A DNA stretch of 64,000 nucleotides from an uncultured Candidatus Saccharibacteria bacterium (lineage in GTDB: Bacteria; Patescibacteriota; Doudnabacteria; UBA920): the NCBI GenBank assembly GCA_964436545.1, contig CAYTCJ010000003.1:3168-67167 (forward strand). The letters run 5' to 3'. This document shows positions 2,637-55,770 of this stretch, piece after piece. Each line of letters begins with the position of its first letter. The stretch's first letter is position 1. A model generated the notes under the pieces. That model worked only from the letters and a program-made list of their open reading frames with translations. It had not been told where the DNA came from and did not search any database. The translations under genes and the position numbers were made by a program.

Positions 2637-3566
2637 ATGCGAGAACGACTTACCATTACTTTAAAACAAGACTTGTTAGAGGCTTTAGATGCCAATATTG
2701 ATGGCGATAAACTTAGAAACAGAAGTCATGCCATTGAATATTATTTGTCTAAAAGTTTAGGGCAAAAAGCTCTTAAAGTGTTAATTTTAGCCGGAGGCAA
2801 ACCGGTAGATTTTGGTAAAGCTCATGGCGGAAAATTACCCAAGGCAATGGTAAAAATTGCGGGTAAGCCACTCTTAGAACAAACTTTGCTAAAATTAAAA
2901 TCTGCCAAATTTAAAGATATCATTATTTCTCTGGGTGAAGGGGGTAAAACTATTAGAGACTATTTTAAAACCGGCGAAGCTTTAGGTTTGCATATTCAAT
3001 ATATTGAACAAGACAAGAGTGTTACCGGGCCGGCCAGCGCCCTCCTTCAGGCAAAAAAATGGGTAGACAATAGTAATTTTTTGTTAATTTATGGAGATGT
3101 GCTTTCGGATATAGATTTTTCTGATTTAATCCAATTCCATTCTTTAAACAAACCCTCCATTTGCACTATGACTTTAACTTCCACTGAAAGCATTGGGCTT
3201 TGGGGTTTGGCCAAACTGCAGGGCAGTCGGGTGGTGGAATTTGAAGAAAAACCGCAAAATCCTAAAACTTTTTCTCGGCTCATTAACGCCGGTATATATT
3301 TAATGGAACCGGGAATTTTTAAATACATTTCACCCCCTCCCAGCCTCCCCCCTCCCTCCTACGCCAAGGCTTCGGAGGACAGCCAAGGGGGAGGAATAAA
3401 GGTGGGGGGAAGTAAATTAGAAAGTGGAATTTTGCCTCGGCTCGCGGAAGAAGGAAAGTTATATGGGTATGTGTATGAAGGTTTATGGTTAGATATTAGT
3501 AATAGCGCAGTGTATAAACAAGCCATAAAAGAAATGAACAAGAATGACAAAAATGAACAAGAATGA
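2637..3566 (+). CDS. Ribbon-helix-helix (CopG-like) DNA-binding domain fused to NDP-sugar pyrophosphorylase (mannose-1-P guanylyl / glucose-1-P thymidylyltransferase-like)
   Basis: The N-terminus MRERLTITLKQDLLEALDANIDGDKLRNRSHAIEYYL has a strand-helix-helix RHH pattern. It is followed by LILAGGKPVDFG...GKPLLEQTL, the G-rich NTP-transferase signature loop. The gene also contains an in-frame GC-rich palindromic insert (see 3333-3410). Confidence 0.7.
   Translation: MRERLTITLKQDLLEALDANIDGDKLRNRSHAIEYYLSKSLGQKALKVLILAGGKPVDFGKAHGGKLPKAMVKIAGKPLLEQTLLKLKSAKFKDIIISLGEGGKTIRDYFKTGEALGLHIQYIEQDKSVTGPASALLQAKKWVDNSNFLLIYGDVLSDIDFSDLIQFHSLNKPSICTMTLTSTESIGLWGLAKLQGSRVVEFEEKPQNPKTFSRLINAGIYLMEPGIFKYISPPPSLPPPSYAKASEDSQGGGIKVGGSKLESGILPRLAEEGKLYGYVYEGLWLDISNSAVYKQAIKEMNKNDKNEQE
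3333..3410. repeat. GC-rich palindromic element inserted in frame in the nucleotidyltransferase gene
   Basis: Sequence ccccctcccagcctcccccctccctcc...ggaggacagccaagggggagg...ggtgggggg has C-run and G-run inverted symmetry. It encodes a Pro/Gly-rich stretch (ISPPPSLPPPSYAKASEDSQGGGIKVGG) that interrupts an otherwise ordinary low-GC gene. Confidence 0.6.
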
Positions 3567-7779: not shown

Positions 7780-9057
7780 TTAGTTTATTAGTAATTCCTC
7801 AATCTTCATTAACCGGTTATATTTACACACCCGCTCGCCTCGGGTGGGGCCGACTTTAATCCACTCACTACCCATGGCCACGGCAAGGTCAACTAAGAAA
7901 GTGTCATTGGTTTCGCCCCCGCCTCGGTGGGAGGGAATAGTGATGAAATTATATTTTTTAGCTAAAAGGCAAGCCTCGACGGTTTCACTCACCGTGCCGG
8001 CTTGGTTAAGTTTAATTAAAATCGCATTGGCGCATTTTTCATCTATGGCTTTTTGCCAAAGTTTTGCATTAGTTACGGTTAAGTCATCGGCCACAATTTT
8101 TACTGTGCCCGCTTGGCTCATTAATTTTGGCCAATTGCTCCAGTCAAATTCCGAGAGACCGTCTTCCAAAGCTATAATCGGATATTTACGAAACCAATCC
8201 GCATACATAGCAATTATTTCGTCGGAAGTTAGCAGTTTTTTATCCACTTTTAAACTATATTTATTATCACTCAGGAATTCCGAAGCCGCAGCGTCTATGT
8301 AAATGCCCGCATCTGTGATAGCTTGATAGCCGGCTTGTTCTATGGCCTTAGTAAGAATTTGTAAAGGCAGTTCATTGCTGGTAATTCCGGCCGGCGCAAA
8401 AGCGCCTTCGTTGCCGACGTTGGTGTTAAACCCTTGTTGTTTTAAAAGGGTTTTGGTGGCTTGATAAATTTCTTCCATCATTTGCACGTTGGCCTTAGCA
8501 GATTGGTTTTTATTTACCGCTAAAATATACTCTTGTAAATCGGTAGAATTATCGGCATGTTTACCGCCTTCAATAAACACGGCAAGGGGACGAGGTAAGT
8601 TGTAAGTTGTAAGTTGCCTGTCTGCGGACAAGGCAGGTAAGTTGTAAGTATTAGCTAGATATTCATATAATTCCAAGTTTGCATCAGTGGCAGCAGCGCG
8701 GGCAATGGCCATGGAAACCCCCAAAATGGCATTGGCACCCAAATTACTTTTGTTTTCCGTGCCGTCTGCGTCAATCATAAGCCTATCAATTTCCTGTTGA
8801 GCTTTTGCCTCTTTGCCAATTAGTAGAGGTGCGATTTTTGTATTAACATTTGCCGTGGCCTGAAGCATACCTTTGCCGTTATAGCGTTTCACTTCACTAT
8901 CGAGCAAAACAAAAGCTTCTTTACTGCCTGCCGACTCGCCATAAGACACGCTGGCTGTGCCGACACAATTATTTTCTAAGACAACGTCCACCTCTAAAGA
9001 GGGCGCGCCACCGCTAGCTAAGATTTCTCTTGCAAAAATGTGTTTGATTTTGGTCAT
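7780..9057 (-). CDS. eno: Enolase (phosphopyruvate hydratase)
   Basis: The SHRGGGETNDTF(LV)DLAVA signature and the overall 425-aa alignment pattern match Eno. The gene contains an in-frame repeat insert (8595-8650). Confidence 0.9.
   Translation of the reverse strand: MTKIKHIFAREILASGGAPSLEVDVVLENNCVGTASVSYGESAGSKEAFVLLDSEVKRYNGKGMLQATANVNTKIAPLLIGKEAKAQQEIDRLMIDADGTENKSNLGANAILGVSMAIARAAATDANLELYEYLANTYNLPALSADRQLTTYNLPRPLAVFIEGGKHADNSTDLQEYILAVNKNQSAKANVQMMEEIYQATKTLLKQQGFNTNVGNEGAFAPAGITSNELPLQILTKAIEQAGYQAITDAGIYIDAAASEFLSDNKYSLKVDKKLLTSDEIIAMYADWFRKYPIIALEDGLSEFDWSNWPKLMSQAGTVKIVADDLTVTNAKLWQKAIDEKCANAILIKLNQAGTVSETVEACLLAKKYNFITIPSHRGGGETNDTFLVDLAVAMGSEWIKVGPTRGERVCKYNRLMKIEELLIN
8595..8650. 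repeat. Palindromic unit flanked by GTAAGTTGTAAGT repeats, inserted in frame in eno
   Basis: Plus strand reads gtaagttgtaagttgtaagttg-cctgtctgcggacaaggcagg-taagttgtaagt. On the coding strand it encodes TYNLPALSADRQLTTYNLP, which has a duplicated TYNLP flank. This sits where other enolases have a short loop before the GGxHADN motif. Confidence 0.65.
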
Positions 9058-9190: not shown

Positions 9191-9832
9191 ATGCTAGAAA
9201 GTAAAGAATTTTGCACAATTTATATTGTTCGGCACGGGGAAACCGACCATAATATTCAGGGGATTATTCAAGGTCAAATAGATACGGAATTAAACGCGCA
9301 AGGTGTTGAGCAAGCCACGCAAGCTGGTAAAAGATTGGCGCCCATAAATTTTGATGTAGTGTTTGCTTCAGATTTGCTCAGAGCAAAAAGAACAGCGGAA
9401 ATAATTGTGGCGGAAAAACAATTAGCGATTAATACCACTAAATTGTTAAGAGAAAGAAACTATGGTCAATATGAAAATAAAAAACATTCAGAATTTAAAG
9501 AAGTTAATAAAGCTCTCTTGTTAAAATTACAAGCCATGGCAACTGAGCAAAGGCGAGAGTATAAATTTGATGCCGAATACGAAAGCGATAATCAGGTAGC
9601 CGGCCGGTTGCTAACTTTTTTAAGAGAAGTGGCTATAACTTATGCCGGAAAAACCGTGTTAATGGTTTCGCATGGCGGAGTAATGAGAATTTTATTGGAA
9701 CATTTAGGTTTTAAAACCACCGAAGAAATGAAAAAGATTTTTATTGAAAATACCGCTCACATAAAATTAGCCAGCAATGGGGTGGAGTTTAATTTATTGG
9801 AAACCAATGGCTTTACAATTAAAGAGGTTTAA
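9191..9832 (+). CDS. Histidine phosphatase family protein (phosphoglycerate mutase-like)
   Basis: The IYIVRHGETDHN catalytic motif is characteristic of the histidine phosphatase superfamily. The gene sits between eno and pyk. Confidence 0.75.
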   Translation: MLESKEFCTIYIVRHGETDHNIQGIIQGQIDTELNAQGVEQATQAGKRLAPINFDVVFASDLLRAKRTAEIIVAEKQLAINTTKLLRERNYGQYENKKHSEFKEVNKALLLKLQAMATEQRREYKFDAEYESDNQVAGRLLTFLREVAITYAGKTVLMVSHGGVMRILLEHLGFKTTEEMKKIFIENTAHIKLASNGVEFNLLETNGFTIKEV

Positions 9833-11233: not shown

Positions 11234-11966
11234 ATGGGCATCTTCAAGGGGATTCCCCTTGAAGATGCCCATCGAGGGAATATGAATCATCGAGATTATA
11301 AACAATTTGCCCCTTTAACCTCCCATCATATTTATAATCGGGGAAATGGAAAGCGAGATATTTTTTTGGATGCGGATGATTATAATTTTTTTCTATATCG
11401 CCTGAAAGAAAATCTTTTTCCCACCTTGAAGATGCCCATCGAGGGGAGTGTATTTAATAATTCGCATACTCCATATAAACGCAAAACCTTGCCTAGCGGA
11501 GCATTTTCTTTATTGGCTTATTGTTTGATGCCAAATCATTTTCATTTACTAATCCAACAGAATTCGTTATTGCCTGTGAGTAAGTTATTAGCCAAAGTTT
11601 GTACAAGTTATAGTAAATATTTTAACAAAAAATATGATAATATTGGTGGAGTCTTTCAAGATCAATTTAAAGCAGTTTTAGTTGTTAGTGATACTCAACT
11701 GCTTTGGCTTTCAGCGTATATTCATCAAAACCCGGTAATAGCAGGAATTATAAAAAAGATAGAGGATTATCAATGGTCTAGTTATTTAGATTTGGTGGGT
11801 TTAAGGCAAGGGAGTCTTTGTGATAAAAGTTTTTTTGTGAAAATGGTTGGTTCTAAAAATTCTTATAAAAAATTTGTTGATGAAAGTTTTGAAAAAATTA
11901 AACAACGGAAGGACATTAAGAATTTACTAATAGAATAGTACCCCCCTTGAAGATGCCCATCAAGGG
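11234..11966 (+). mobile_element. RAYT (REP-associated tyrosine transposase) unit flanked by REP hairpins
   Basis: REP-like hairpins cccTTGAagatgcccatCgAggg occur as an inverted pair at 11234-11273, again at 11425-11447 (inside the gene) and again at 11941-11966. The enclosed CDS has HuH and Tyr motifs. Confidence 0.7.
11283..11938 (+). CDS. IS200/IS605-like Y1 HuH transposase (REP-associated tyrosine transposase)
   Basis: HFHLLI is the HuH motif, and YIHQNPV supplies the downstream catalytic Tyr. The track ORF start at 11234 is encoded by the REP palindrome, so the ATG at 11283 is the more likely start. Confidence 0.7.
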
Positions 11967-14977: not shown

Positions 14978-15067
14978 TGGCGGAGAGAGGGGGATTCGAA
15001 CCCCCGAAGCCTTTTACAGCTTACTCGCTTTCCAAGCGAGCGCACTAGACCACTATGCGATCTCTCC
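14978..15067 (-). tRNA. tRNA-Ser (anticodon GGA)
   Basis: The reverse complement folds as a class II tRNA. It has a 7-bp acceptor stem (ggagaga/tctctcc), the anticodon loop tt-GGA-aa, a long variable arm, a T-arm ggttcgaatcc and a CCA end. Confidence 0.85.
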
Positions 15068-27379: not shown

Positions 27380-27500
27380 AAGCTGATTATAACATACTAA
27401 TTTACTAAAGAATCCGGAATGTTGACGTTAGGTATACTTTACTGGGGTATAAGCTTGATTTTTGTTTTATTTATGTTAAAATATCCAAAGGTATTCGGGA

Positions 27501-27565
27501 GTTCCGCCAGCTGGCGGATCAGCGGTACCTGCCTCTACCTGTCGGCAGACAGGTGCCGGCAGGCA
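27501..27565. repeat. Cluster of GC-rich palindromic units (ccgccagctggcgg; cctgtcggcagacagg; gccggcaggcagg)
   Basis: Perfect short palindromes lie in an otherwise AT-rich intergenic region. The same units recur at 61356-61373, 55731-55750, 45491-45512 and 8617-8635. Confidence 0.65.
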
Positions 27566-27595
27566 GGGAGCAATCGGCTTCAGAATAAAGAAAAT

Positions 27596-27874
27596 ATGTA
27601 TTGTGTTTATGCAATCATTAGCCAAATAAAAAATAGAATTTATGTAGGACTGTCCCACGATCCCTTTAAAAGGCTTACCGAACATAATTTAGGAGAATGT
27701 AAATCCACTAAAGGTTATACACCTTGGAAATTGTTTTTTATCGAAACTGACCATCAATCTTTAAATTCTGCAAGAAATAGTGAAAAGAGATTGAAGAGCG
27801 GTTTTGGTAAAGAATTTTTAAAAACTTTACCGAAAGAAAAAATTTCATATTATTCGGGAGTAGCTCAGCGGTAG
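27596..27874 (+). CDS. GIY-YIG nuclease family protein (small, standalone)
   Basis: MYCVYAII...RIYVGLSHDPFKRLTEHN matches the GIY-YIG core. The 3' end overlaps the tRNA-Asn 5' end, and the track start at 27419 lies in repeat DNA. Confidence 0.6.
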   Translation: MYCVYAIISQIKNRIYVGLSHDPFKRLTEHNLGECKSTKGYTPWKLFFIETDHQSLNSARNSEKRLKSGFGKEFLKTLPKEKISYYSGVAQR

Positions 27875-27928
27875 AGCAATCGGCTGTTAACCGATGGGTC
27901 CTGGGTTCGAATCCCAGCTCCCGAGCCA
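27854..27928 (+). tRNA. tRNA-Asn (anticodon GUU)
   Basis: Acceptor stem tcgggag/ctcccga, D-arm gctcagcggtagagc, anticodon loop ct-GTT-aa, T-arm ctgggttcgaatcccag, discriminator G and an encoded CCA. Confidence 0.85.
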
Positions 27929-27967
27929 CGCTAAGCGTGGCTGTACCCCCGCTTAGCGGGGGAGCCA
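27914..27967. repeat. 54-bp direct repeat copy 1 (tRNA-Asn 3' end + two downstream hairpins); attL-like
   Basis: ccagctcccgagccacgctaagcgtggctgtacccccgcttagcgggggagcca is identical over 54/54 nt to 32357-32410. Confidence 0.8.
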
Positions 27968-28038
27968 CAGATACGTTTAGTGCAGTTAAGAAAACCTTGC
28001 TAGTTGCGAGGTTTTTCTTTTAGGTTTAAAATTTAATC

Positions 28039-28308
28039 ATGTTTTATGTATACATCTTGCATAGTCAAAAAGATGGTTTGTTATATACTGGCTACACACC
28101 TGATCTCAAAAATCGGATAAAGTCCCACACAGCAGGTTATGTTATAGCAACTAAACATCGCCGTCCTTTAAAGCTTATTCATTATGAGGCTTTTTTGTTC
28201 GAGTCAGATGCCAAACGGCGTGAACTGTATCTTAAAGGTGGTAATGGTAAAAAAGAGTTAGAACAAATTTTAGAAGATTATTTTAAAAGCAATCCTTGGA
28301 ATAAATGA
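28039..28308 (+). CDS. GIY-YIG nuclease family protein (second paralog)
   Basis: MFYVYILHSQKDGLLYTGYTPDLKNRIKSH matches the GIY-YIG core (YVYIL...YTGYT...R...H). Confidence 0.65.
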   Translation: MFYVYILHSQKDGLLYTGYTPDLKNRIKSHTAGYVIATKHRRPLKLIHYEAFLFESDAKRRELYLKGGNGKKELEQILEDYFKSNPWNK

Positions 28309-28375
28309 TAGGTTAGCTTTATTAAATATAAAAGCTTGTCAAAAATTCAGACTTGCCTCTTATTTTTTTATATAT

Positions 28376-28909
28376 ATGTACAAAAAGTTTATTTTTTGCC
28401 GAGATATTAAAAATAAGAAATATAAGGTTAAAATTGACCAATTAAATTTTCGTCCGGCAGTATACGGACTGATTTTTAAAGGTAATAAAATATTATTAAG
28501 TAGACAAGGAGACGGTTATGATTTTCCAGGTGGTGGTGTAGACAAGGGAGAGAAACTTGAAGATGCATTAAAACGTGAGGTTTGGGAAGAAACAGGAGTA
28601 AAAATAACGTCTGGAGATTTAGTTTATGTTACCCAAGATTTTTTTATTAGCATCCAGAGTAGAAAAAGAATTCATTCCATTCTTGTATATTATCTATGCA
28701 AGAAACCAAGTGGTAAAATTTCGACCAAGCATTTTGATGGTTATGAAAAGAGCTATTTAAAAGCAGCAGAGTGGATTGATTTAAAAGATGTAAAAAAACT
28801 GCATTTCTACAATGCAGTTAATAGTCCAAAACTTATCAAGCAAGGTTATGAACTTTATAAAAGGCTTTATGAATCAACAATACAAGTTTCAATTAGCAGG
28901 CAACAATAG
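28376..28909 (+). CDS. NUDIX hydrolase
   Basis: Nudix box GGGVDKGEKLEDALKREVWEETGV (GX5EX7REUXEEXGU). Confidence 0.8.
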   Translation: MYKKFIFCRDIKNKKYKVKIDQLNFRPAVYGLIFKGNKILLSRQGDGYDFPGGGVDKGEKLEDALKREVWEETGVKITSGDLVYVTQDFFISIQSRKRIHSILVYYLCKKPSGKISTKHFDGYEKSYLKAAEWIDLKDVKKLHFYNAVNSPKLIKQGYELYKRLYESTIQVSISRQQ

Positions 28910-28921
28910 AAAATAAATTAT

Positions 28922-29785
28922 ATGCCAGAAAGGCCAACATCAGAAGAATTAAATAGATCTATTGAAGAAGGAATTATGACATTCCAAGAGTATGCAAAAA
29001 AGGAGCACGATGTTCCTTATGTTTTTGAATTGAAGGAAGGGAGTAAATCACTTACCTATTACGGGGCTGGTCACTCGCATAATCCTGAAGATCCTATGTT
29101 TGTAGATATTGAACAAAGATTTAAAGCGCCACATCCTCAAGTAGTTATAGTTGAAGGAGTAAATCAATTAGTAGAACAAAAAGAACGATTCAGAAGTACC
29201 TTGAGAGGGGTAACTCGTGAAGGAGTAATAAAAAAAATGGGTGAATCTGCTTTCGCTCTAAAATTAGCAATGGATTCCAATATAGAAGTAGAATCACCGG
29301 AACCGCAATTAAGCGAAGAAATACAATATTTAATACAAACAGGTTTCGAGAAAGAAGATATTTTTGCTTTTTATCTTTATCGTTCGGCAAATCAATATCA
29401 AAGAACTCCCCAGACCCCAAGTATAGAAGAATATTTACAGCCAGACGCAGAGGAGTTTAAAGCCGCAACAAATTGGGAAAATTTTGATTATTCAATTGAA
29501 AATCTAAAAACCATCGGTCATAGGTTATGGGGAAATAGGAGTGCTTTAGATAGTGCAGAATTTTCAGAAGAACGTATTGACCCTGTCCCTTGGGATGAAA
29601 AGAAAGATGAACAAACAGTAGTAAATCAAATAGCGGCTCAGTCCAGCTTTTTTCGTGATAGATTTATGGTAAAACGATTACAAAAAATACTAAAAGAAAA
29701 AGATAGTGTGCTTGTAGTTTTTGGTGTAAGTCATGCATATATGCAAGAACCAGCTTTAAGAAAAATATTTGAAAGTTTTAAATAA
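28922..29785 (+). CDS. TraB/GumN/Tiki-family-like protein (tentative)
   Basis: An N-terminal YYGAGHSH and a C-terminal VVFGVSHA resemble the paired GxxH motifs of the Tiki/TraB/PrgY family. Similarity is judged by eye only. Confidence 0.35.
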   Translation: MPERPTSEELNRSIEEGIMTFQEYAKKEHDVPYVFELKEGSKSLTYYGAGHSHNPEDPMFVDIEQRFKAPHPQVVIVEGVNQLVEQKERFRSTLRGVTREGVIKKMGESAFALKLAMDSNIEVESPEPQLSEEIQYLIQTGFEKEDIFAFYLYRSANQYQRTPQTPSIEEYLQPDAEEFKAATNWENFDYSIENLKTIGHRLWGNRSALDSAEFSEERIDPVPWDEKKDEQTVVNQIAAQSSFFRDRFMVKRLQKILKEKDSVLVVFGVSHAYMQEPALRKIFESFK

Positions 29786-29850
29786 GAAAGTATGTGCTCA
29801 TTAGACTGCCTAAATAAGGTCCCAACCATTTCTACTGTGTTGAACCAAAC

Positions 29851-29880
29851 AAAAACCACTATTTAGATAGTGGTTTTTGT
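29851..29880. terminator. Rho-independent terminator (aaaaaccactat-ttag-atagtggttttt)
   Basis: A perfect 12-bp stem followed by a T-run. Confidence 0.75.
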
Positions 29881-30115
29881 TTGGGGAAAGTGGTAATATA
29901 TTAAAAATAAGCAGGTTATATTTTTGTCAAAAATTCAGACTTGACCCTATTCTAGACAGTGGGTTTATCTTGGCATGATAAATTGGCACCGACTAAAGGC
30001 ATATTTGGTTTTAATGATTGGGGTAGTTTGCTATTTGGGTATGGTATTTTGTTCTTTATCGTGGGAAAAGTTGTAGCATGGTTTCAACGCCCTTAACTGT
30101 AAATTTGTTAGCGTT

Positions 30116-30144
30116 AAAAGCCTGGACGAAACCAGGCTTTTTTG
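30116..30144. terminator. Rho-independent terminator (aaagcctgg-acgaaa-ccaggctttttt) just upstream of the MOSC gene
   Basis: A 7-bp GC-rich stem followed by a T-run. Confidence 0.7.
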
Positions 30145-30160
30145 ATAGACTAAAGGGTCT

Positions 30161-31069
30161 TTGAATCAAATCGAAGAAGAAAGGAGCAGGAGGGTGAAAG
30201 TATCAGAACTCTACGTTTACCCAATTAAATCGTGCCGTGGAATTGGGCTTTCGGAAGCTCGAGTCAACGCGCGCGGAATTGAACACGACCGGGAGTATAT
30301 GGTCATAGACGCCGATACGGGCATGTTCGTAGCCCAGCGGCAGGACAACGGTCTCGGCATCGAAATCAAGAGCATGTGCCAGGTGAAGACGAAACTCCAA
30401 CCCATGAACTTCATTCACATCTGGGCACCGGAAATGAGGGGCGTGCACATTAACCCCAAACTGGCCGGTAGCGAGATGCGGGTTCAGGTCTGGAAGAACG
30501 GCGGCATCCTGGCTTATGACATGGGCGACTTTTTGGCCGATTGGTTTACCAAGTTCCTAAGTCGCGAACGGCCTGGCAAGTATCGTCTGGTGCGTATGAC
30601 CGACGACTTCATCCGGCGGGCCAAGATCGGTGACGCTCAAGTGGGTTTCGCCGACGCTTACCCGTTCATGGGGATCGGCTGCAGCGCACTCGGGGAACTC
30701 AACCGACGGTTGGCGGTCAAACGCCATCCCGAACTTCCCATGAACCGCTTCCGGCCGAACATCGTGTTTGGCGACGCTGCTCCGCACTCCGAAGACCACA
30801 TGAAGGTCATCAAAATCGGCGACGAGGGCGGCGTAATCCTCGACGGTATGACGCTATGCGAACGCTGCCCCTTGCCCTGCACGGATCAGGAAATCGCTGT
30901 GCGGACCAAGGAACCCAGCGCCACCTGGGCGGAATATCGTCGCGGTCGGCACATCGGTATCACCGATCCGACAAAACAGGGAGCTGTCTTCTTCGGGCGT
31001 AACTTCAACCACCGCGGACCCGGTTACATCAAGGTCGGCGACTACGTGGAGATTCTGGAATCGGACTAG
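30161..31069 (+). CDS. MOSC-domain protein (MOSC N-terminal beta-barrel + MOSC; YcbX/mARC-like), high-GC
   Basis: VSELYVYPIKSCRG is the MOSC_N signature. The more likely start is the GTG at 30194, preceded by aaggagcaggagg. GC is about 60% against a background under 40%. Confidence 0.75.
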   Translation: MNQIEEERSRRVKVSELYVYPIKSCRGIGLSEARVNARGIEHDREYMVIDADTGMFVAQRQDNGLGIEIKSMCQVKTKLQPMNFIHIWAPEMRGVHINPKLAGSEMRVQVWKNGGILAYDMGDFLADWFTKFLSRERPGKYRLVRMTDDFIRRAKIGDAQVGFADAYPFMGIGCSALGELNRRLAVKRHPELPMNRFRPNIVFGDAAPHSEDHMKVIKIGDEGGVILDGMTLCERCPLPCTDQEIAVRTKEPSATWAEYRRGRHIGITDPTKQGAVFFGRNFNHRGPGYIKVGDYVEILESD

Positions 31070-31170
31070 CACTCGAGGCGTGGGCCGTTGACCTTAACCG
31101 GCAACGATTCACGCTTCTCATCTTAGCAAATCAAGGATTGGTTTATTGAGATGAGAAAAGAAGGAGGAGT

Positions 31171-31437
31171 ATGTTAGCAATCGCACGCTTAATGGTGCAT
31201 ATGCACCACCACATTTGGGCGATTCTTGTGGTGTTTCTTGTAGGAGTCGGAGCTTTTGTTCTCGGCTCTTACATCCAAAACGCAATTGCCCGCAACGTGG
31301 TTTTCGGTATCGCAATCATCGCTGTGGCGTTTGTCATGGCGACGGGCGCTTCTATCGGCCCTATGGACGACTGGCAGCACCAGCACGGAAGCTGCCTGCT
31401 CGAAACAATCGACCAAATGCAGAGAGGTAAAAAGTGA
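31171..31437 (+). CDS. Small hydrophobic membrane protein, His-rich N-terminus, high-GC
   Basis: 88 aa with two predicted TM helices. It is translationally coupled (ATGA-type overlap) to the downstream amidase. Coding status is moderately likely. Confidence 0.45.
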   Translation: MLAIARLMVHMHHHIWAILVVFLVGVGAFVLGSYIQNAIARNVVFGIAIIAVAFVMATGASIGPMDDWQHQHGSCLLETIDQMQRGKK

Positions 31438-32117
31438 AGCTACGCAATCTGTTGTTCGTGCTCATGGTTCTGTCTGTCGCTTTCGGGTGCGCCAATGCGC
31501 AGTCGCCGCAAAAGCAGCCCGAATGGCAGGCCAACTGGTTCCCCATTAACTGGGAGGCGGAGAAGATTGAGAAACAAATCGTCACCGATACAATCTTCAT
31601 CCACCATACGGCATGGGAACCGAACGCCACATGGCAGCGGCTGTCCGAGGAGCAGAAAAAACGGCTCTACGATGCCCGCTACGCCATCGCCGACAAAGAC
31701 CCGTTCGTGCAAGGCGAGCCGTCGCACTCGGGTCACTATCGCTTAGTGGACGGCAAATTGGTGGAAGTGTTTTACGCCTACCACTGGATAGTCCGGCAAG
31801 ACGGTAAGGTCGAACGGCTTCTGGATGACCGCGAAGTCGGCTGGCACGCCGGCAACTGGGCGGAGAACATGCGGTCAGTGGGTATTGTTTTCGATGGCGA
31901 CTACAGCAAAAAGCCGCCGCCGAAGAAAGCGCTCAAGGCAGCAGCCAAGCTCATCCAGCAATACGTCCAGCAGTATCCGACAATTACCCGCCTCAAGGCA
32001 CACCAGGACGTGCGCAAGACCGAGTGCCCGGGTGCATGGTATCATGCGGCAGACAAGCACGGGCAGACCGGCCGGGACCGACTGCTCAAATACGCAAAGC
32101 TAATATTGTCCGAGTAA
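31434..32117 (+). CDS. N-acetylmuramoyl-L-alanine amidase, Amidase_2/PGRP (T7-lysozyme-like) family, secreted; high-GC
   Basis: Signal peptide. IFIHHTAWEP, GWHAGNWAENMRSVGIVFDGDY and HQDVRKTECPG match zinc amidase_2 catalytic motifs. Confidence 0.75.
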   Translation: MKLRNLLFVLMVLSVAFGCANAQSPQKQPEWQANWFPINWEAEKIEKQIVTDTIFIHHTAWEPNATWQRLSEEQKKRLYDARYAIADKDPFVQGEPSHSGHYRLVDGKLVEVFYAYHWIVRQDGKVERLLDDREVGWHAGNWAENMRSVGIVFDGDYSKKPPPKKALKAAAKLIQQYVQQYPTITRLKAHQDVRKTECPGAWYHAADKHGQTGRDRLLKYAKLILSE

Positions 32118-32137
32118 GTGTTCGGACTAACTGTGGG

Positions 32138-32173
32138 GCGCACGTTCAAGCTGGACGTGCGCTTCTTCTTTTT
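32138..32173. terminator. Rho-independent terminator (gcgcacg-ttcaagctgga-cgtgcgc-ttcttcttttt)
   Basis: A GC-rich 7-bp stem plus a T-rich tail directly after the amidase stop. Confidence 0.7.
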
Positions 32174-32356
32174 CCATATAAGCCTTTCTAATACGCTGCA
32201 CATATCGGAGCCATAAGAAATTCATTCCATTTTGGGATGGATTTTTTATTTCTAGATACTGGTATGAGAAGTTTATCCGCCTCTGGCGGAAATCCCGCCT
32301 ACAATAATTTGAATTGCTTTAGCAATTCATAGTGGAAGTGCCATAAAACTTTATGG

Positions 32357-32410
32357 CCAGCTCCCGAGCCACGCTAAGCGTGGCTGTACCCCCGCTTAGC
32401 GGGGGAGCCA
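32357..32410. repeat. 54-bp direct repeat copy 2 (partial tRNA-Asn 3' end + hairpins); attR-like
   Basis: Identical to 27914-27967, but no full tRNA precedes it. It is preceded by the palindrome gccataaaactttatggc. Confidence 0.8.
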
Positions 32411-38183: not shown

Positions 38184-39149
38184 TTATTTGTTTGAGACTT
38201 CGGCAGGGGGAGTTTGGGAGTTTTGGTAAGACAGGGCGGTAATGGCACCTAGCAGAATCAGCCCGCCTACAATTTGCATTATCGCCAGTTGACCCCCTGG
38301 AATAAATATCCAATTAATAATTACTGCAGAAAAGGGGAAAGCTAATTCGCACAAAGTGGCAATGCTCGCTTTGGTATGCTGTAAGCCTTTGTAGTAAATA
38401 AATAAAGAAACAAAGCCCGCAATTGTGGCAATAATTAAAACAAATAGCCAATCTTTAGTGGTGGCGTGAGCAATTTCGCCCCAATGGCCTTGGTATGTTT
38501 GGAAGGCCAATAAAAATCCGCCTGCGGTTAAAAACCGAATAGCAGTTAAGGCCTGAAAAGAGAGTTGATTTAAAAGTTTTCTGCCAAACACAGTCGAGCC
38601 TGCCCACAGCCCGGCTGCCAGTAAAGCTAATAAGACGCCTTTGAGGTTAGGGTTAAAGCTTTCGCCCGGGTAAAGTTGAGGTGTAAAGTTAGGGAAACTT
38701 AGCAAATACGCGCCCAAGATCGCAAAGCCAGACCAGAGCCAAAATTTGGCTGAAAGTTGTTCTTTTAAAAAGATAACGGCTAACAGAATGGCAATAATGG
38801 GCTGAATTTTTTGGAGGAGAATGGCTACCGAAGGGTTAACATAGTGAAAGCTTTGGGTAAAGGCTATGGTAGCCAGTGCACTGCCTCCTATACCAATAAA
38901 GACAACATACCCCCACTCTAGGCGGGTTAAAGTTTTTAGTTCGGACAGGTATTTATTTAAAAACCATAACACTAAAACCGCAATCACCAAATGCTCCATA
39001 AGCACAATAGTGCCGGAAGATAGATCGCCGGTTAAATATTTTCTAAAGGGCGCATCTATAGTCCAAAGCAGAGCAGAGAAAAAAACTAACCAAGGCGCAA
39101 AACGAGATGAAAGCATAGGGGAAATAGAGTTATGAATTATGTCCCGCAA
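38184..39149 (-). CDS. DMT-superfamily transporter (EamA-like, 10 TM)
   Basis: Two EamA-like halves with about 10 hydrophobic helices. Confidence 0.7.
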   Translation of the reverse strand: MRDIIHNSISPMLSSRFAPWLVFFSALLWTIDAPFRKYLTGDLSSGTIVLMEHLVIAVLVLWFLNKYLSELKTLTRLEWGYVVFIGIGGSALATIAFTQSFHYVNPSVAILLQKIQPIIAILLAVIFLKEQLSAKFWLWSGFAILGAYLLSFPNFTPQLYPGESFNPNLKGVLLALLAAGLWAGSTVFGRKLLNQLSFQALTAIRFLTAGGFLLAFQTYQGHWGEIAHATTKDWLFVLIIATIAGFVSLFIYYKGLQHTKASIATLCELAFPFSAVIINWIFIPGGQLAIMQIVGGLILLGAITALSYQNSQTPPAEVSNK

Positions 39150-39180
39150 AGCGGGATCCGCCTTTGGCGGAAATTATGAA
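39141..39180. repeat. Palindromic element: gtcccgcaaagcgggat + ccgcctttggcgg + aaattatgaa
   Basis: Two perfect hairpins. A longer version with an extra middle unit lies at 55711-55770. Confidence 0.7.
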
Positions 39181-45254: not shown

Positions 45255-47081
45255 ATGCTTAATGATAATTTATCAGCATTACATTCTCTAATGGGGTTTG
45301 AGGGGGAAGTAGACAACAGTGAAGATACTTTAATCAAATACAGTCATGATGCCAGCATTTTTGAAGTGAGGCCCATGGGTGTGGTGCATCCGAAAAATAG
45401 TGAAGATGTAAAGAATGTGGTGAAGTGGGTGGTAAGCCAAAGGCAAGATAGTTTAACTTTGAATACAGATGACTCAGAGCGTCATCCTGAACCTGCCTTG
45501 TCGTCAGGCAGGCTTGTTTCAGGATCCCATATAAATGGATTCCGAAATAAATTCGGAATGACAAATGGAGATAAAGCTTCTGTAAATAAAGGGGGGGAGT
45601 TATCTATTACAGCTCGGAGTGCCGGCACAGATATGTCGGGCGGGCCACTTAATACTGGAATAATTGCCGACTTTACCACGCATTTTAATAAAATTTTAAA
45701 CTTTGGGCCGAATTTTGTAGAAGTAGAGCCGGGGGTATATTACCGCGACTTTGAAGTAGAAACTTTAAAACGCGGACTACTTTTGCCATGTTATACGGCT
45801 TCCAAAATGCTGAATACCGTGGGCGGAATGGTGGGCAACAATAGCGCGGGTGAAAAAACTTTGGCGTATGGGCAAACTAAAGATTTTGTAGAAGAATTAA
45901 GCGTGGTATTGAGTGATGGAAATGAATATCAATTTAGTGAATTGGAAAGTAGAGAATTAGAGAGTAAACTAAAACTCCCGAATTTTGAAGGTGATATTTA
46001 CCGAAAAATCTATCAGCTCATTAAAGATAATCGCGATTTAATTCAAAACGCCAAACCCAAAACCAGTAAAAATTCCGCCGGATATTTACTGTGGGAAGTA
46101 TGGGATGGTATAAAATTTAATTTAGCCAAATTAATTGTAGGCAGTCAGGGGACATTGGGCCTTGTTACGAAAATTCGGTTTCGGCTGGTAGAGCCTAAGC
46201 CTAAGTCTGCTTTGCTGGTGATGTTTTTAAAAGACTTGAATAATTTGGGAGAAATTGTGGCAGATGTGGTAGAACATAAGCCGGAAAGTTTTGAAAGTTA
46301 TGATGATAAAACTTTAAAACTGGCCATAAAGTTTTTGCCCGCCATGGTAAAGAAGATGTCCAAAACCGCTGGGTCGGCTTTTGGTGGCATTCTAAACATG
46401 TTAAGTTTGGGTTGGCAGTTTATGCCCGAAGCGGTTATGACTTTAACTGGCGGAATGCCTAAGCTGGTATTAATTTGTGAGTTTACCGGCACGAGCCAAG
46501 AAGCAGTAAATGAAAAAGCCAGTTTACTCCAGCGGGAAGTGGAAGGGAAATTTCATATCCAAACTCGGATTTGTCAAAATAAACAAGAAGTGGAAAAATA
46601 TTGGACCATAAGGCGGGAGTCGTTTTCTCTTTTACGGGAGCGCATTAAAGACCGGCACACCGCCCCCTTCATAGATGACATTGCGGTCCTGCCCAAAGAT
46701 ATGCCAGCATTTTTACCGCGGTTAAATAAAATTTTGGAAAAATATCAGGACAAAATTATTTACACCATTGCCGGACATGCGGGGAATGGCAATTTTCACA
46801 TCATTCCCTTAATGAATTTGGCGGACGAAAACCAGCGCGCGATAATTCCTCAACTTTCCGAAGAAGTTTATAGTTTGGTTTTGGAATTTCATGGGACAAT
46901 TACGGCAGAGCATAACGACGGACTGATTCGCACCCCTTTTTTACAAAAAATGTATGGGAAAGAGGTAATAGGTTTGTTTGAAGCAGTAAAAAATATTTTT
47001 GATCCGCACAATATTTTTAACCCCGGCAAAAAAGTTCACGGGGATTTGGGGTATGCGATGGAGCATATTAAAAGAAGTTAG
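45255..47081 (+). CDS. FAD-linked oxidase (GlcD / D-lactate dehydrogenase-like, PCMH-type FAD-binding)
   Basis: ARSAGTDMSGGPLN and an N-terminal FAD-binding-4 pattern. The C-terminal domain ends NIFNPGK. Carries an in-frame ~80-nt palindromic insert (see 45480-45562). Confidence 0.75.
   Translation: MLNDNLSALHSLMGFEGEVDNSEDTLIKYSHDASIFEVRPMGVVHPKNSEDVKNVVKWVVSQRQDSLTLNTDDSERHPEPALSSGRLVSGSHINGFRNKFGMTNGDKASVNKGGELSITARSAGTDMSGGPLNTGIIADFTTHFNKILNFGPNFVEVEPGVYYRDFEVETLKRGLLLPCYTASKMLNTVGGMVGNNSAGEKTLAYGQTKDFVEELSVVLSDGNEYQFSELESRELESKLKLPNFEGDIYRKIYQLIKDNRDLIQNAKPKTSKNSAGYLLWEVWDGIKFNLAKLIVGSQGTLGLVTKIRFRLVEPKPKSALLVMFLKDLNNLGEIVADVVEHKPESFESYDDKTLKLAIKFLPAMVKKMSKTAGSAFGGILNMLSLGWQFMPEAVMTLTGGMPKLVLICEFTGTSQEAVNEKASLLQREVEGKFHIQTRICQNKQEVEKYWTIRRESFSLLRERIKDRHTAPFIDDIAVLPKDMPAFLPRLNKILEKYQDKIIYTIAGHAGNGNFHIIPLMNLADENQRAIIPQLSEEVYSLVLEFHGTITAEHNDGLIRTPFLQKMYGKEVIGLFEAVKNIFDPHNIFNPGKKVHGDLGYAMEHIKRS
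45480..45562. repeat. Compound palindromic element inserted in frame in the FAD-oxidase gene
   Basis: atcctgaa-cctgccttgtcgtcaggcagg-cttgtttcaggat followed by attccgaaataaattcggaat-gaca. It encodes ERHPEPALSSGRLVSGSHINGFRNKFGMTNG between the conserved FAD-binding segments. Confidence 0.65.
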
Positions 47082-47121: not shown

Positions 47122-47613
47122 TTAGTAGTTAGAAAATAAATGAAATTGCCGGACCGAGCGCCCCGTGGGGGGCGAAGGTCCGGCTTTGCGTTGCGCGCTG
47201 TCTTTTTTTGCCGGAGGGCGCGCCACCTCCAGCAAAACCGATTTGAACTCTTCTACTGCCTTTTGGGCAGCCGGGACACGTGCCCCTTCCAAAATGAGCT
47301 CAAGCTGATAAACAGCACGAGCTCCGTCCGGCCGGAGTTCAATCCGGAATCGTCGTTTTTTAACTTCCACGACATGGACGGTTATGCTCAGAGCCTTGCC
47401 CGATTCAACATCGGGATTTGACTTGAGCCATGGAACCAAGGTTTCCGACACCGCGCCGTAAAGGACGCGGTAGTCCTCGCCGGCTTCGTCCGGCGGAACT
47501 TTAGGCAGGAGTTCAACCTGCCGGTCGGTCGCCCCCTCAAGAGAGGGTATAAAATAGCAAGAAATAAAAAAAAGACCCACCCTCAATAATATCACCAAAA
47601 ATTTCCTCATCAT
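47122..47613 (-). CDS. Secreted hypothetical protein, high-GC body with AT-rich signal-peptide region
   Basis: 163 aa. The signal peptide is encoded at low GC and the body at about 60% GC. Low-complexity AATCAG/CAGTAG repeats flank it (47085-47135, 47950-48035). Confidence 0.45.
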   Translation of the reverse strand: MMRKFLVILLRVGLFFISCYFIPSLEGATDRQVELLPKVPPDEAGEDYRVLYGAVSETLVPWLKSNPDVESGKALSITVHVVEVKKRRFRIELRPDGARAVYQLELILEGARVPAAQKAVEEFKSVLLEVARPPAKKDSAQRKAGPSPPTGRSVRQFHLFSNY

Positions 47614-55710: not shown

Positions 55711-55770
55711 GTCCCGCAAAGCGGGATCCCTGCCTTGTCGGCAGACAGGCGCCTTTGGCGGAAATTATGA
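55711..55770. repeat. Three-unit palindromic element: gtcccgcaaagcgggat + cctgccttgtcggcagacagg + gcctttggcggaaattatgaa
   Basis: A longer form of the 39141-39180 element. Its middle unit equals the eno and FAD-oxidase insert cores. AGAGAATAG tandem repeats follow it. Confidence 0.7.

Follow-up and report, generated by a model that had tools for sequence, protein, structure and literature searches.

Here, we analyzed a 64,000-nucleotide stretch of DNA from an uncultured Candidatus Saccharibacteria bacterium (contig CAYTCJ010000003.1; the whole stretch is referred to as the window) and found that small genes of one GIY-YIG nuclease family lie on both sides of its tRNA-Asn(GTT) gene. We put at roughly one in two the probability that these genes are homing-endonuclease-like selfish cassettes of the UPF0213 family, which inserted at tRNA-Asn while the tRNA was kept intact by partial duplication, with one of them heading an integrase-free cargo island. 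Genomic islands classically land at tRNA genes, and such insertions are generally credited to an integrase. The islands described here form a recurrent, precisely placed and integrase-free family that shares a single gene, encoding a 90-aa GIY-YIG nuclease. The anatomy of the locus, the insertion site and its junctions, the presence and absence states in relatives and the family-wide linkage to tRNA genes were all observed directly. The central features are as follows (positions are those of the window; the two nuclease genes are termed GIY-YIG-1 and GIY-YIG-2; ORF, open reading frame):

27455-27482, + strand: promoter-like site (TTGATT-16-TGTTAAAAT) upstream of the tRNA 5' fragment, GIY-YIG-1 and the tRNA
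27492-27579, + strand: decayed, displaced duplicate of tRNA-Asn positions -2 to +32, collinear and exact over three blocks (11, 9 and 12 nt)
27596-27874, + strand: GIY-YIG-1, 92 aa (Pfam E 2e-11), with its stop codon inside the tRNA (21-nt overlap with the tRNA 5' end)
27854-27928, + strand: tRNA-Asn(GTT), intact, with the CCA encoded (ARAGORN; Rfam 72.5 bits)
27914-27967, + strand: 54-bp direct repeat, first copy (15 nt from the tRNA 3' end, then 39 nt of hairpins; repeat search)
27924-27967, + strand: twin palindrome module, consisting of AGCCACGCTAAGCGTGGCT (its 5' arm is the tRNA tail), CCCCCGCTTAGCGGGGG and then the AGCCA tail again
27990-28016, + strand: terminator-like hairpin between the hairpin module and GIY-YIG-2
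28039-28308, + strand: GIY-YIG-2, 89 aa, UPF0213 family, left-end gene of the island (Pfam E 2e-15)
32158-32213, + strand: right-end motif of about 56 nt (...TTCTTCTTTTT...TTTCTAAT...CGGAGCCA), the island ending at 32213 (nhmmer profile E 1e-16)
32214-32356, + strand: older layer, with a terminator hairpin and a decayed, hairpin-laden region like that downstream of tRNA-Asn in relatives
32357-32410, + strand: 54-bp repeat, second copy, with a tRNA 3' fragment (32357-32371) and the twin palindromes (repeat search; L108 homology from 32366)

From its letters alone, the region had earlier been interpreted as an element integrated at the tRNA 3' end and bounded by a perfect 54-bp repeat of the attL/attR attachment-site type (hereafter, the sequence-only reading). 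ARAGORN and Rfam agree on the tRNA, and a repeat search of the window recovered a single 54-nt repeat family with two copies that are 100% identical. The alternative that the 54 bp are a common terminator module was rejected for this window, in which either palindrome, with up to three mismatches, occurs at the two repeat sites only (0.06 expected per search). The two palindromes fold very stably (z about -5.6), and the structured segments downstream of the tRNA were rejected as known RNAs, since Rfam matches nothing but the tRNA.

Comparison with related loci (designated by L numbers) revealed the insertion itself. The module of tRNA-Asn, twin palindromes, terminator and GIY-YIG-2 is common at the nucleotide level to L011, L016, L018, L021/L022 and L023, and the GIY-YIG-2 homologs that follow tRNA-Asn and its hairpins are 79-85% identical (L011, L016, L018, L021 and L023). 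Nucleotide homology with the window ends at the GIY-YIG-2 stop codon, and the genes beyond differ in every locus. In L016, the insert comprises hairpins, GIY-YIG-2, cargo and right-end motif as one block; the locus reads tRNA, 3.9 kb and flank, and L015 and L010 read tRNA and then the same flank, with the sequence past the L016 motif being the terminator found right behind the tRNA in L015 (93% over 57 nt) and in L010. Likewise, the sequence past the L012 motif is that following the tRNA 3' fragment in L015 (88% over 89 nt), which identifies a discrete 1,153-bp insertion in L012 that holds a single 265-aa ORF. L021 and L022 share a 100%-identical hairpin and GIY-YIG-2 module, which is preceded by the tRNA in L022 and by the right-end motif of another island in L021. 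Since the sequence after the right-end motif is the empty-site flank of relatives, the motif marks the island end, and the occupied/empty pairs indicate that the insertion point is exactly behind the tRNA-terminal GAGCCA and that the inserts finish in ...GGAGCCA.

By this comparison, the insertion unit of the window would be 27929-32213, about 4.3 kb, sharing just GAGCCA with its target. The sequence-only reading was thus right about an insertion at the tRNA 3' end, as seen in L016 against L015 and L010 and in L012 against L015, but the unit differs from the interval between the 54-bp copies. The check it proposed, for empty tRNA-Asn sites in relatives, returned these occupied/empty pairs and a site that is a hot spot. 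The proposal of the 54 bp as an attachment core held in part: a tRNA-end repeat is present, but the 39-nt half corresponds to the palindrome signature found beside GIY-YIG-2-type genes at other tRNAs and is the palindrome module of this GIY-YIG cassette family. Either a recent recombination event or gene conversion acting between the two hairpin modules could account for the perfect identity of the copies.

The right-end motif consists, in order, of a GC-rich terminator hairpin, TTCTTCTTTTT...TTTCTAAT... and GGAGCCA. Copies were found in the window, L004, L012, L016 and L021, two copies in L018 (ending at 13244 and 16363) and a diverged version in L023, on islands with unrelated cargo. The motif was not found in the more distant GIY-YIG loci and is specific to the tRNA-Asn lineage. 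Its origin as a diverged tRNA T-loop-to-CCA segment was rejected, as shuffle tests were not significant beyond GAGCCA (p 0.016-0.9).

Beyond the island end, the segment 32214-32410 is an older layer at the same site, with its hairpins part of the right flank shared with the strain represented by L108. Its 32214-32356 portion holds a 17-nt hairpin, TATCCGCCTCTGGCGGA, identical to L005. The flank protein of L108 shows 96% identity and its DNA about 91%; homology begins exactly at 32366 (the first palindrome) and runs through the three flank genes, and an unrelated P-loop kinase gene lies left of the second hairpin copy. The region left of that copy is therefore strain-variable, and the hairpin copy itself belongs to the conserved flank. 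An empty site for this exact genome was not found among the matches to the flank proteins, which were Logan contigs of the same sample that break at repeats; the 265-aa flank protein has a single homolog cluster, and its best contig, L108, has different content and is not an empty site.

Pfam detected no recombinase domain in any ORF at 27596-32117, in agreement with the earlier remark that the island lacks a tyrosine or serine recombinase. No hidden recombinase was found in the 287-aa ORF of the window, the 473-aa protein of L018 or the 265-aa protein of L012, nor among 20 further large window ORFs. The island proteins of L012, L016 and L018 likewise contain no recombinase domain, and none is on record for those of L021 and L023. 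Furthermore, no integrase occurs in, beside or within 10 kb of about eight islands (window, L012, L016, L018, L021 and L023), and no IntI-type integrase lies next to the array, unlike in an integron-like cassette array. The island cargo in relatives includes AbiEi/AbiEii, SocA/Panacea, methyltransferases and kinases.

A recombinase encoded elsewhere could produce such junctions. Among known systems, the islands described here come close to tRNA-targeted genomic islands and to integrase-less cis-mobilizable elements (CIMEs), the latter formed by accretion, and they might be CIME-like cis-mobilizable remnants accreting at the tRNA-Asn 3' end, with GIY-YIG genes as passengers or parasites and the attachment crossover at the 54 bp or at the 6-7-nt GAGCCA core. 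The likeness extends from the precise insertion at the tRNA 3' end with a short shared core and a perfect 54-bp repeat in the window to the foreign composition, the accessory and defense cargo, the missing internal recombinase and the tandem arrays (the right-end motif occurs twice in L018, and in L021 and L023 it stands directly against the following island). The conserved arm of about 56 nt beside the core also resembles an attP arm, and GAGCCA fits the 6-8-bp identical overlap that tyrosine recombinases use. However, a trans-acting recombinase is at odds with the absence of an integrase around the islands and in the 20 further window ORFs, and it leaves unexplained the 300-bp GIY-YIG-only units with tRNA 5' duplications at 21 anticodon types, as well as the palindromes rebuilt from the tail of each tRNA. 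Unlike in tRNA-targeted islands and CIMEs, no array contains a cognate integrase-bearing element, the shared core is only GAGCCA, the one conserved gene is that of the GIY-YIG protein, and the tRNA 5' half is duplicated by a second cassette that has no cargo, which integrases rarely bring about. We therefore consider an outside recombinase unlikely.

On the 5' side of the tRNA, GIY-YIG-1 is part of a separate insertion with its own displaced tRNA 5' fragment. Taken together, the promoter-like site, fragment and ORF give the order promoter, displaced tRNA 5' half, GIY-YIG-1 and intact tRNA. The displaced fragment is split by the 16-nt hairpin TCCGCCAGCTGGCGGA and a 40-nt GC-rich hairpin, and the segment 27492-27579 folds stably (z = -3.9). 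In L007, the fragment is interrupted at the same tRNA position (20/21) as in the window, and GIY-YIG-1, whose catalytic residues are intact, is 74% identical to the homolog at the same position in that locus. A same-strand GIY-YIG gene lies directly upstream of tRNA-Asn in L004, L006, L007, L008, L010, L012 and L014, and the short upstream sequence of L005 and L011 can likewise be read as the 3' terminus of a GIY-YIG ORF. Each upstream GIY-YIG ORF in relatives is preceded by the same promoter box and a tRNA 5' fragment split by a GC-rich hairpin. In the empty state (L013 and L009), nothing separates the promoter and leader from the tRNA, and the TTGAtaaaaa...TGnTAAAATATCcAAAG box that stands before the 5' fragment in occupied relatives is found directly before the tRNA. 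The solo state (L015) has the fragment and hairpin unit with no ORF, the occupied state is seen in the window, L004, L007, L008, L010, L014 and L016, and L006 and L012 carry the fragment and hairpin unit on both sides of the ORF (double state). In several lineages, the ORF stop codon is one of two TAG triplets in the tRNA 5' region.

Several further observations concern this side of the locus and its tRNA. In L018, the closest relative, a GIY-YIG-1-type ORF upstream of tRNA-Asn (9578-9796) lacks a canonical start codon, escaped gene calling and is probably a decaying copy. The 16-nt hairpin TCCGCCAGCTGGCGGA is identical in the window and L004 and sits at different positions of the tRNA fragment. 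A group I intron of about 330 nt (Rfam RF00028, 63.7 bits; cut-off 50) occupies the tRNA-Asn anticodon loop of L016 (9483-9810) and also of L017; the 5' exon ends in ...CTGT, the intron ends in G, and the tRNA is not called by ARAGORN. L016 also has a GIY-YIG gene (2969-3211, - strand) directly upstream of tRNA-Ser(GGA) (2758-2847, - strand) near dnaG, and the tRNA-Ser(GGA) of the window (14978-15067, - strand), likewise near dnaG, has no GIY-YIG neighbor, so that the two may be another case of presence and absence. A scan of reference genomes with the tRNA body found all 75 nt of tRNA-Asn identical in 13 loci from metagenome-assembled genomes (MAGs) labeled Saccharibacteria or Doudnabacteria. 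Two MAGs hold two copies each of the identical tRNA-Asn (L003 and L006; L004 and L010), and the tRNA-Asn gene itself may have been horizontally transferred together with the cassette.

On the 3' side, perfect palindromes centered on GCTNAGC are the signature of the GIY-YIG-2 subgroup. In particular, 33/36 lie within 300 nt of a GIY-YIG gene, with such neighborhoods covering 17% of the sequence (P about 1e-22), and they occupy the spacer between tRNA and ORF in 10 of 30 such pairs. The outer arm of the first palindrome is always the last 4-6 nt of the tRNA itself (AGCCA, AACC, ACAAC, TCACCA and others), and the same tail usually recurs after the second palindrome. Palindromes beside GIY-YIG-2-type genes are also found at tRNA-Gln, Lys, Leu, Glu, Tyr and Met, and none occurs in the window outside the tRNA-Asn locus. 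A diverged (80%), inverted copy of the twin hairpins stands between the convergent rpoD and arginase genes of L018 (1098-1143), with no tRNA nearby. In one subfamily (L026, 6165-6185, and also L028, L031, L034 and L035), the conserved residues D-A-K-R-R-E of the catalytic R/E region (around nt 165 of the ORF) are encoded by the perfect palindrome TCGCGACGCTAAGCGTCGCGA; as this palindrome is centered on GCTNAGC, the signature also lies inside the nuclease gene.

Hairpins at the left end and insertion 3' of one short, unchanging sequence that appears again at the right end are also what a Y1/HUH transposase acting in trans could leave, by single-strand "peel and paste" insertion 3' of GAGCCA with no duplication, as in IS200/IS605 palindrome-associated transposable elements (PATE) or repetitive extragenic palindromes (REP) with their REP-associated tyrosine transposases (RAYT). 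The window does encode a RAYT-like Y1/HUH ORF of 234 aa and 33% GC (11234-11938, + strand; Pfam Y1_Tnp 1.6e-9), with the HUH motif NHFHLL and the tyrosine motif YIHQNP, which may be linked to GC-rich mini-hairpins dispersed in the genome. The use of one 16-nt hairpin at differing tRNA positions in the window and L004 and the dispersal of other small GC-rich hairpins would suit such an enzyme, as would the likeness of short GC-rich palindromes beside a fixed short sequence to REP/RAYT and IS200/IS605 systems. However, the ORF scores 54 bits against the 80-bit cut-off of the NCBIfam REP-associated tyrosine transposase model, no island holds a Y1 gene, and the GCTNAGC palindromes are bound to GIY-YIG genes (33/36) rather than dispersed, with arms that vary with the tRNA tail. 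Known IS200/IS605 elements are also small, and in the islands about 48 nt separate the right-end hairpin from the end. We thus regard a Y1/HUH mechanism as very improbable. The mini-hairpins, TCCGCC...GGCGGA or TCCCGC...GCGGGA, are scattered through a genome of 41% GC (23 calls, some counted twice, against 1.45 expected), with sites at 39142-39171, 55712-55726, 45492-45512, 32276-32290 and 27503-27518.

The association of this gene family with tRNAs extends well beyond tRNA-Asn. A metagenome scan queried with the GIY-YIG-2-like subset of proteins found >536 relatives, of which 80 loci were kept. In these loci, a tRNA lies at most 200 nt away from 49 of 93 GIY-YIG genes (25 upstream and 24 downstream of the tRNA); gene and tRNA share the strand in all 49 cases, which together cover 21 anticodon types. 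Random re-placement of tRNAs within the same loci gave 14.0 +/- 3.0 such genes, and never more than 26 in 2000 trials, which bears out the earlier suspicion that a GIY-YIG pair at the tRNA is meaningful. Two to three GIY-YIG copies occur per locus and per MAG, assemblies break at these tRNA/GIY-YIG units, and the GIY-YIG gene is the sole gene common to them. Partial but exact duplications of the adjoining tRNA accompany many of the genes at other tRNAs as well: L046 has a 69-nt copy of tRNA-Ser 1-69 upstream of the ORF, 5' tRNA pieces flank the gene in L056, L083 and L074, the ORF of L089 lies between 14-nt tRNA 3'-end repeats, L092 has the order tRNA-Cys, GIY-YIG ORF and 3' copy, and L068 has two 3' copies of tRNA-Trp. 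In L095 (6362-6561; L096 likewise), three tandem 44-nt copies of tRNA-Cys 30-73, spaced 78 nt apart, lie downstream of GIY-YIG and tRNA-Cys, in an arrangement that recalls the segmental amplification driven by the phage endonuclease SegB. A phage origin was rejected, as only 3 relatives were found among 2.9 million viral contigs, 2/3 of them adjoining a tRNA. L111 and L112 are the two ends of a 16.3-kb predicted viral contig (IMGVR_UViG_3300027819_000412), with a GIY-YIG gene near each end, one of them followed by tRNA-Lys.

The same linkage could be explained with no mobility at all, if the small GIY-YIG genes were conserved tRNA-linked host genes, for instance for co-expressed nucleases that help to maintain nucleic acids, and the fragments, hairpins and variable genes arose by local duplication, gene conversion and illegitimate recombination at highly transcribed tRNA loci, with gene conversion keeping the 54-bp copies identical. 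Strict same-strand adjacency suggests co-transcription, the pairing of GIY-YIG with tRNA-Asn is kept across MAGs labeled Saccharibacteria and Doudnabacteria, no mobility is known for the widespread UPF0213 proteins, and the second hairpin copy in the conserved flank of the window is compatible with gene conversion. However, empty, solo, occupied and double states are seen at an identical tRNA with the same promoter, and the insertions stand as discrete blocks whose junctions are exact and whose end motif is conserved. The two to three copies per locus or MAG, the foreign composition of the cargo and the breaking of assemblies at the units also argue for mobility, and we judge a purely local origin to be distinctly unlikely.

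At the protein level, Y5, Y16, G18, R26, H30 and E62 are invariant in 15 aligned proteins that are 28-85% identical to GIY-YIG-2. A profile of the GIY-YIG-2 group matches the structures of BH0048 (PDB 1zg2; 1zg2_A E 7.6e-10, query 2-72) and EF2693 (PDB 1ywl; 1ywl_A E 7.2e-9, query 2-82), which are of the same size as the proteins here and match over nearly their full length. The GIY-YIG proteins are thus assigned, by profile comparison, to the UPF0213 / COG2827 family of small GIY-YIG proteins, whose members measure about 90-107 aa. Both structures were called hypothetical by their depositors, and literature searches returned no function, tRNA linkage or mobility for them. Matches to PHROGs and NCBIfam models of homing endonucleases were weak and N-terminal only.

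The closest known analog of these cassettes is SegB. In T4 and T6, SegB is a free-standing GIY-YIG homing endonuclease encoded in a tRNA cluster, which recognizes the T-psi-C motif and drives the preferential, non-reciprocal inheritance of segB along with the neighboring tRNA genes (PMC2330249). segB is enriched beside tRNAs of many isotypes, and the breaks yield recombination between the tRNA 5' region and the segB 3' end (PMC13096335). The cassettes here resemble SegB in the GIY-YIG domain, the tRNA setting with many isotypes and a target holding a conserved tRNA element, and the recombination between the tRNA 5' region and the 3' end of the nuclease gene parallels the ORF-tRNA overlap and the duplicated tRNA pieces. 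SegB, however, is borne by phages and is presumably about twice the size of our proteins, with a DNA-binding part, whereas the proteins here are chromosomal, consist of the catalytic domain only and are nearly absent from viral contigs; GCTNAGC palindromes, displaced tRNA halves and kilobase-sized cargo islands have not been reported for SegB. In free-standing GIY-YIG elements of fungal mitochondria, such as that of Allomyces atp6, an ORF at the gene end comes with a substitute terminal segment, and the original is left as a pseudo-fragment. Those elements differ in their protein-coding targets, organellar location and larger endonucleases, and they involve neither palindromes nor cargo. GIY-YIG homing endonucleases associated with tRNAs, and islands targeted to tRNA genes, are already known. 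Searches of an incomplete collection of full texts returned no description of small GIY-YIG genes at tRNA genes in bacteria of the candidate phyla radiation, nor anything on YhbQ, and a chromosomal UPF0213 mini-nuclease family tied to tRNAs across Patescibacteria, together with displaced tRNA halves, target-templated palindromes and integrase-free islands with a conserved end motif, looks undescribed.

By analogy with SegB and other free-standing GIY-YIG homing endonucleases, we infer the nuclease cleavage, its specificity, the copying step and the resulting mobility of selfish UPF0213 cassettes as follows. The cassette unit would be just a stand-alone GIY-YIG nuclease gene of about 90 codons, one family serving both sides of tRNA-Asn. 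The nuclease would break an unoccupied tRNA gene, repair would copy the cassette from an occupied allele, and tRNA function would be kept because the displaced segment is supplied again, as a duplicate that the cassette carries or generates. The 5' cassette would then comprise the decayed tRNA 1-32 fragment, GIY-YIG-1 and the intact tRNA, transcribed from the tRNA's own promoter; speculatively, the hairpins splitting the displaced fragment may block cassette loss by recombination between the repeats. The 3' cassette would comprise the GCTNAGC palindromes on the tRNA tail, the terminator and GIY-YIG-2, and would head the 4.3-kb island 27929-32213, with its two compositionally distinct cargo blocks and a right-end motif whose last bases repeat the target GAGCCA. 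This cassette may have acquired its cargo, or may travel with it, up to the right-end motif. Candidate target cues for a 90-aa catalytic domain are the GCTNAGC palindromes or the secondary structure of tRNA genes.

Several points weigh against selfish homing cassettes. The proteins are 89-92 aa long, with the GIY-YIG domain at residues 1-71, and have no DNA-binding domain such as gives SegB and I-TevI their specificity; to our knowledge, cleavage activity or specificity is known for no UPF0213 protein. Homing leaves unexplained how one fold reaches 21 different tRNAs, and since it needs two-sided homology it does not explain a conserved right-end motif or a spread among genomes whose flanks differ. 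The L012 island and the second L018 island carry the right-end motif but no GIY-YIG gene, and 44/93 homologs have no called tRNA within 200 nt. Co-location could also reflect a tRNA-related cellular role or co-expression. Finally, all comparisons are of MAGs and metagenome contigs, and Logan contigs stop at both copies of the 54-bp repeat, so that linkage across the repeats in the window comes solely from one assembly, the 135-kb NCBI contig.

A bolder variant would make the UPF0213 mini GIY-YIG nucleases the mobility enzymes of unrecognized, integrase-free Patescibacteria elements that target tRNA ends, label the junction with GCTNAGC-centered palindromes formed on the 3' tail of the tRNA, preserve the tRNA through partial duplication and can bear kilobases of cargo up to a conserved right-end motif; we offer it tentatively, as possible but doubtful. 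If true, it would amount to a new way of building genomic islands at tRNA genes and would give the UPF0213 family its first function. More generally, a nuclease family tied to at least 21 tRNA anticodon types across Patescibacteria would, if the insertions are indeed driven by the nuclease, provide a function for the widespread UPF0213 family, extend SegB-type tRNA-linked homing from phages to the chromosomes of ultra-small bacteria and offer reduced genomes a route to gain defense and cell-wall genes. The palindromes, with their GCTNAGC center and target-copied arms, are a concrete candidate recognition site. For annotation, displaced tRNA halves, overlapping ORF stops and the group I intron in tRNA-Asn are easily missed or misread.

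The remaining features of the island are its cargo and the elements between the cargo genes:

28336-28360, + strand: 25-nt repeat, first copy (TTGTCAAAAATTCAGACTTG..., including GTCAA-N10-TTGAC; repeat search)
28376-28909, + strand: NUDIX hydrolase, 31% GC (Pfam)
28922-29785, + strand: 287-aa protein, 35% GC, with a sub-threshold TraB/Tiki-like match only
29845-29884, + strand: inverted repeat of 18 bp, perfect, terminating the low-GC cargo block (repeat search)
29924-29948, + strand: 25-nt repeat, second copy, promoter-like (TTGTCA-18-TATTCT), ahead of the high-GC block
30161-31069, + strand: MOSC_N and MOSC protein, 57% GC, with 71% GC at third codon positions (GC3); annotated start 30194 (Pfam)
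31171-31437, + strand: 88-aa membrane protein, 51% GC
31434-32117, + strand: Amidase_2 peptidoglycan amidase, 57% GC, its N-terminus signal- or lipoprotein-like (Pfam)
32135-32165, + strand: GC-rich terminator hairpin opening the right-end motif

Pfam agrees with the paired GIY-YIG genes, NUDIX, MOSC and amidase that the sequence-only reading had placed in or at the island. Its Tiki/TraB-like call for the 287-aa protein amounts to a weak likeness (TraB_PrgY_gumN E 0.013, 15.8 bits against a cut-off of 26.8 bits). The high-GC block of MOSC, membrane protein and amidase was recovered by the per-gene composition check: GC is 31-35% over 28000-30100 and 51-57% over 30160-32120, against a window mean of 40.9%, and GC3 is 20-27% in GIY-YIG-2, NUDIX and the 287-aa ORF and 60-73% in the MOSC, membrane and amidase genes. 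An origin of the high-GC block as a chimeric assembly was ruled out, as an independent Logan contig of the same sample (L104) is identical to the window across 29525-31906, and the low-GC and high-GC halves are therefore physically joined.

A 20-mer found upstream of two island genes had been put forward as an island-specific promoter or operator. It is part of the 25-nt repeat, the copies of which (at 28336 and 29924) are 92% identical, and it lies 28 nt past GIY-YIG-2 and again before the high-GC block, so flanking the segment of NUDIX and the 287-aa ORF. The 25-nt repeat also occurs 63 nt after GIY-YIG-2 in L018, whose cargo differs, and a variant ends the downstream region of L016. The 20-mer is therefore not island-specific but a regulatory or junction element at the level of the lineage.

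Other ORFs of foreign composition in the window are a class I/II aminotransferase (1282-2466) at 64% GC and an ORF (47122-47613) at 53% GC; the tRNA-Asn island is therefore not the sole high-GC import. The closest MOSC homologs, in L105 and L106 (around 8001-8876; 66-77% identity), have 52-55% GC against 41-47% in their flanks and sit amid small accessory genes (NUDIX, glyoxalase, DinB and OmdA), and L106 also encodes a RibD_C-GIY-YIG fusion protein.

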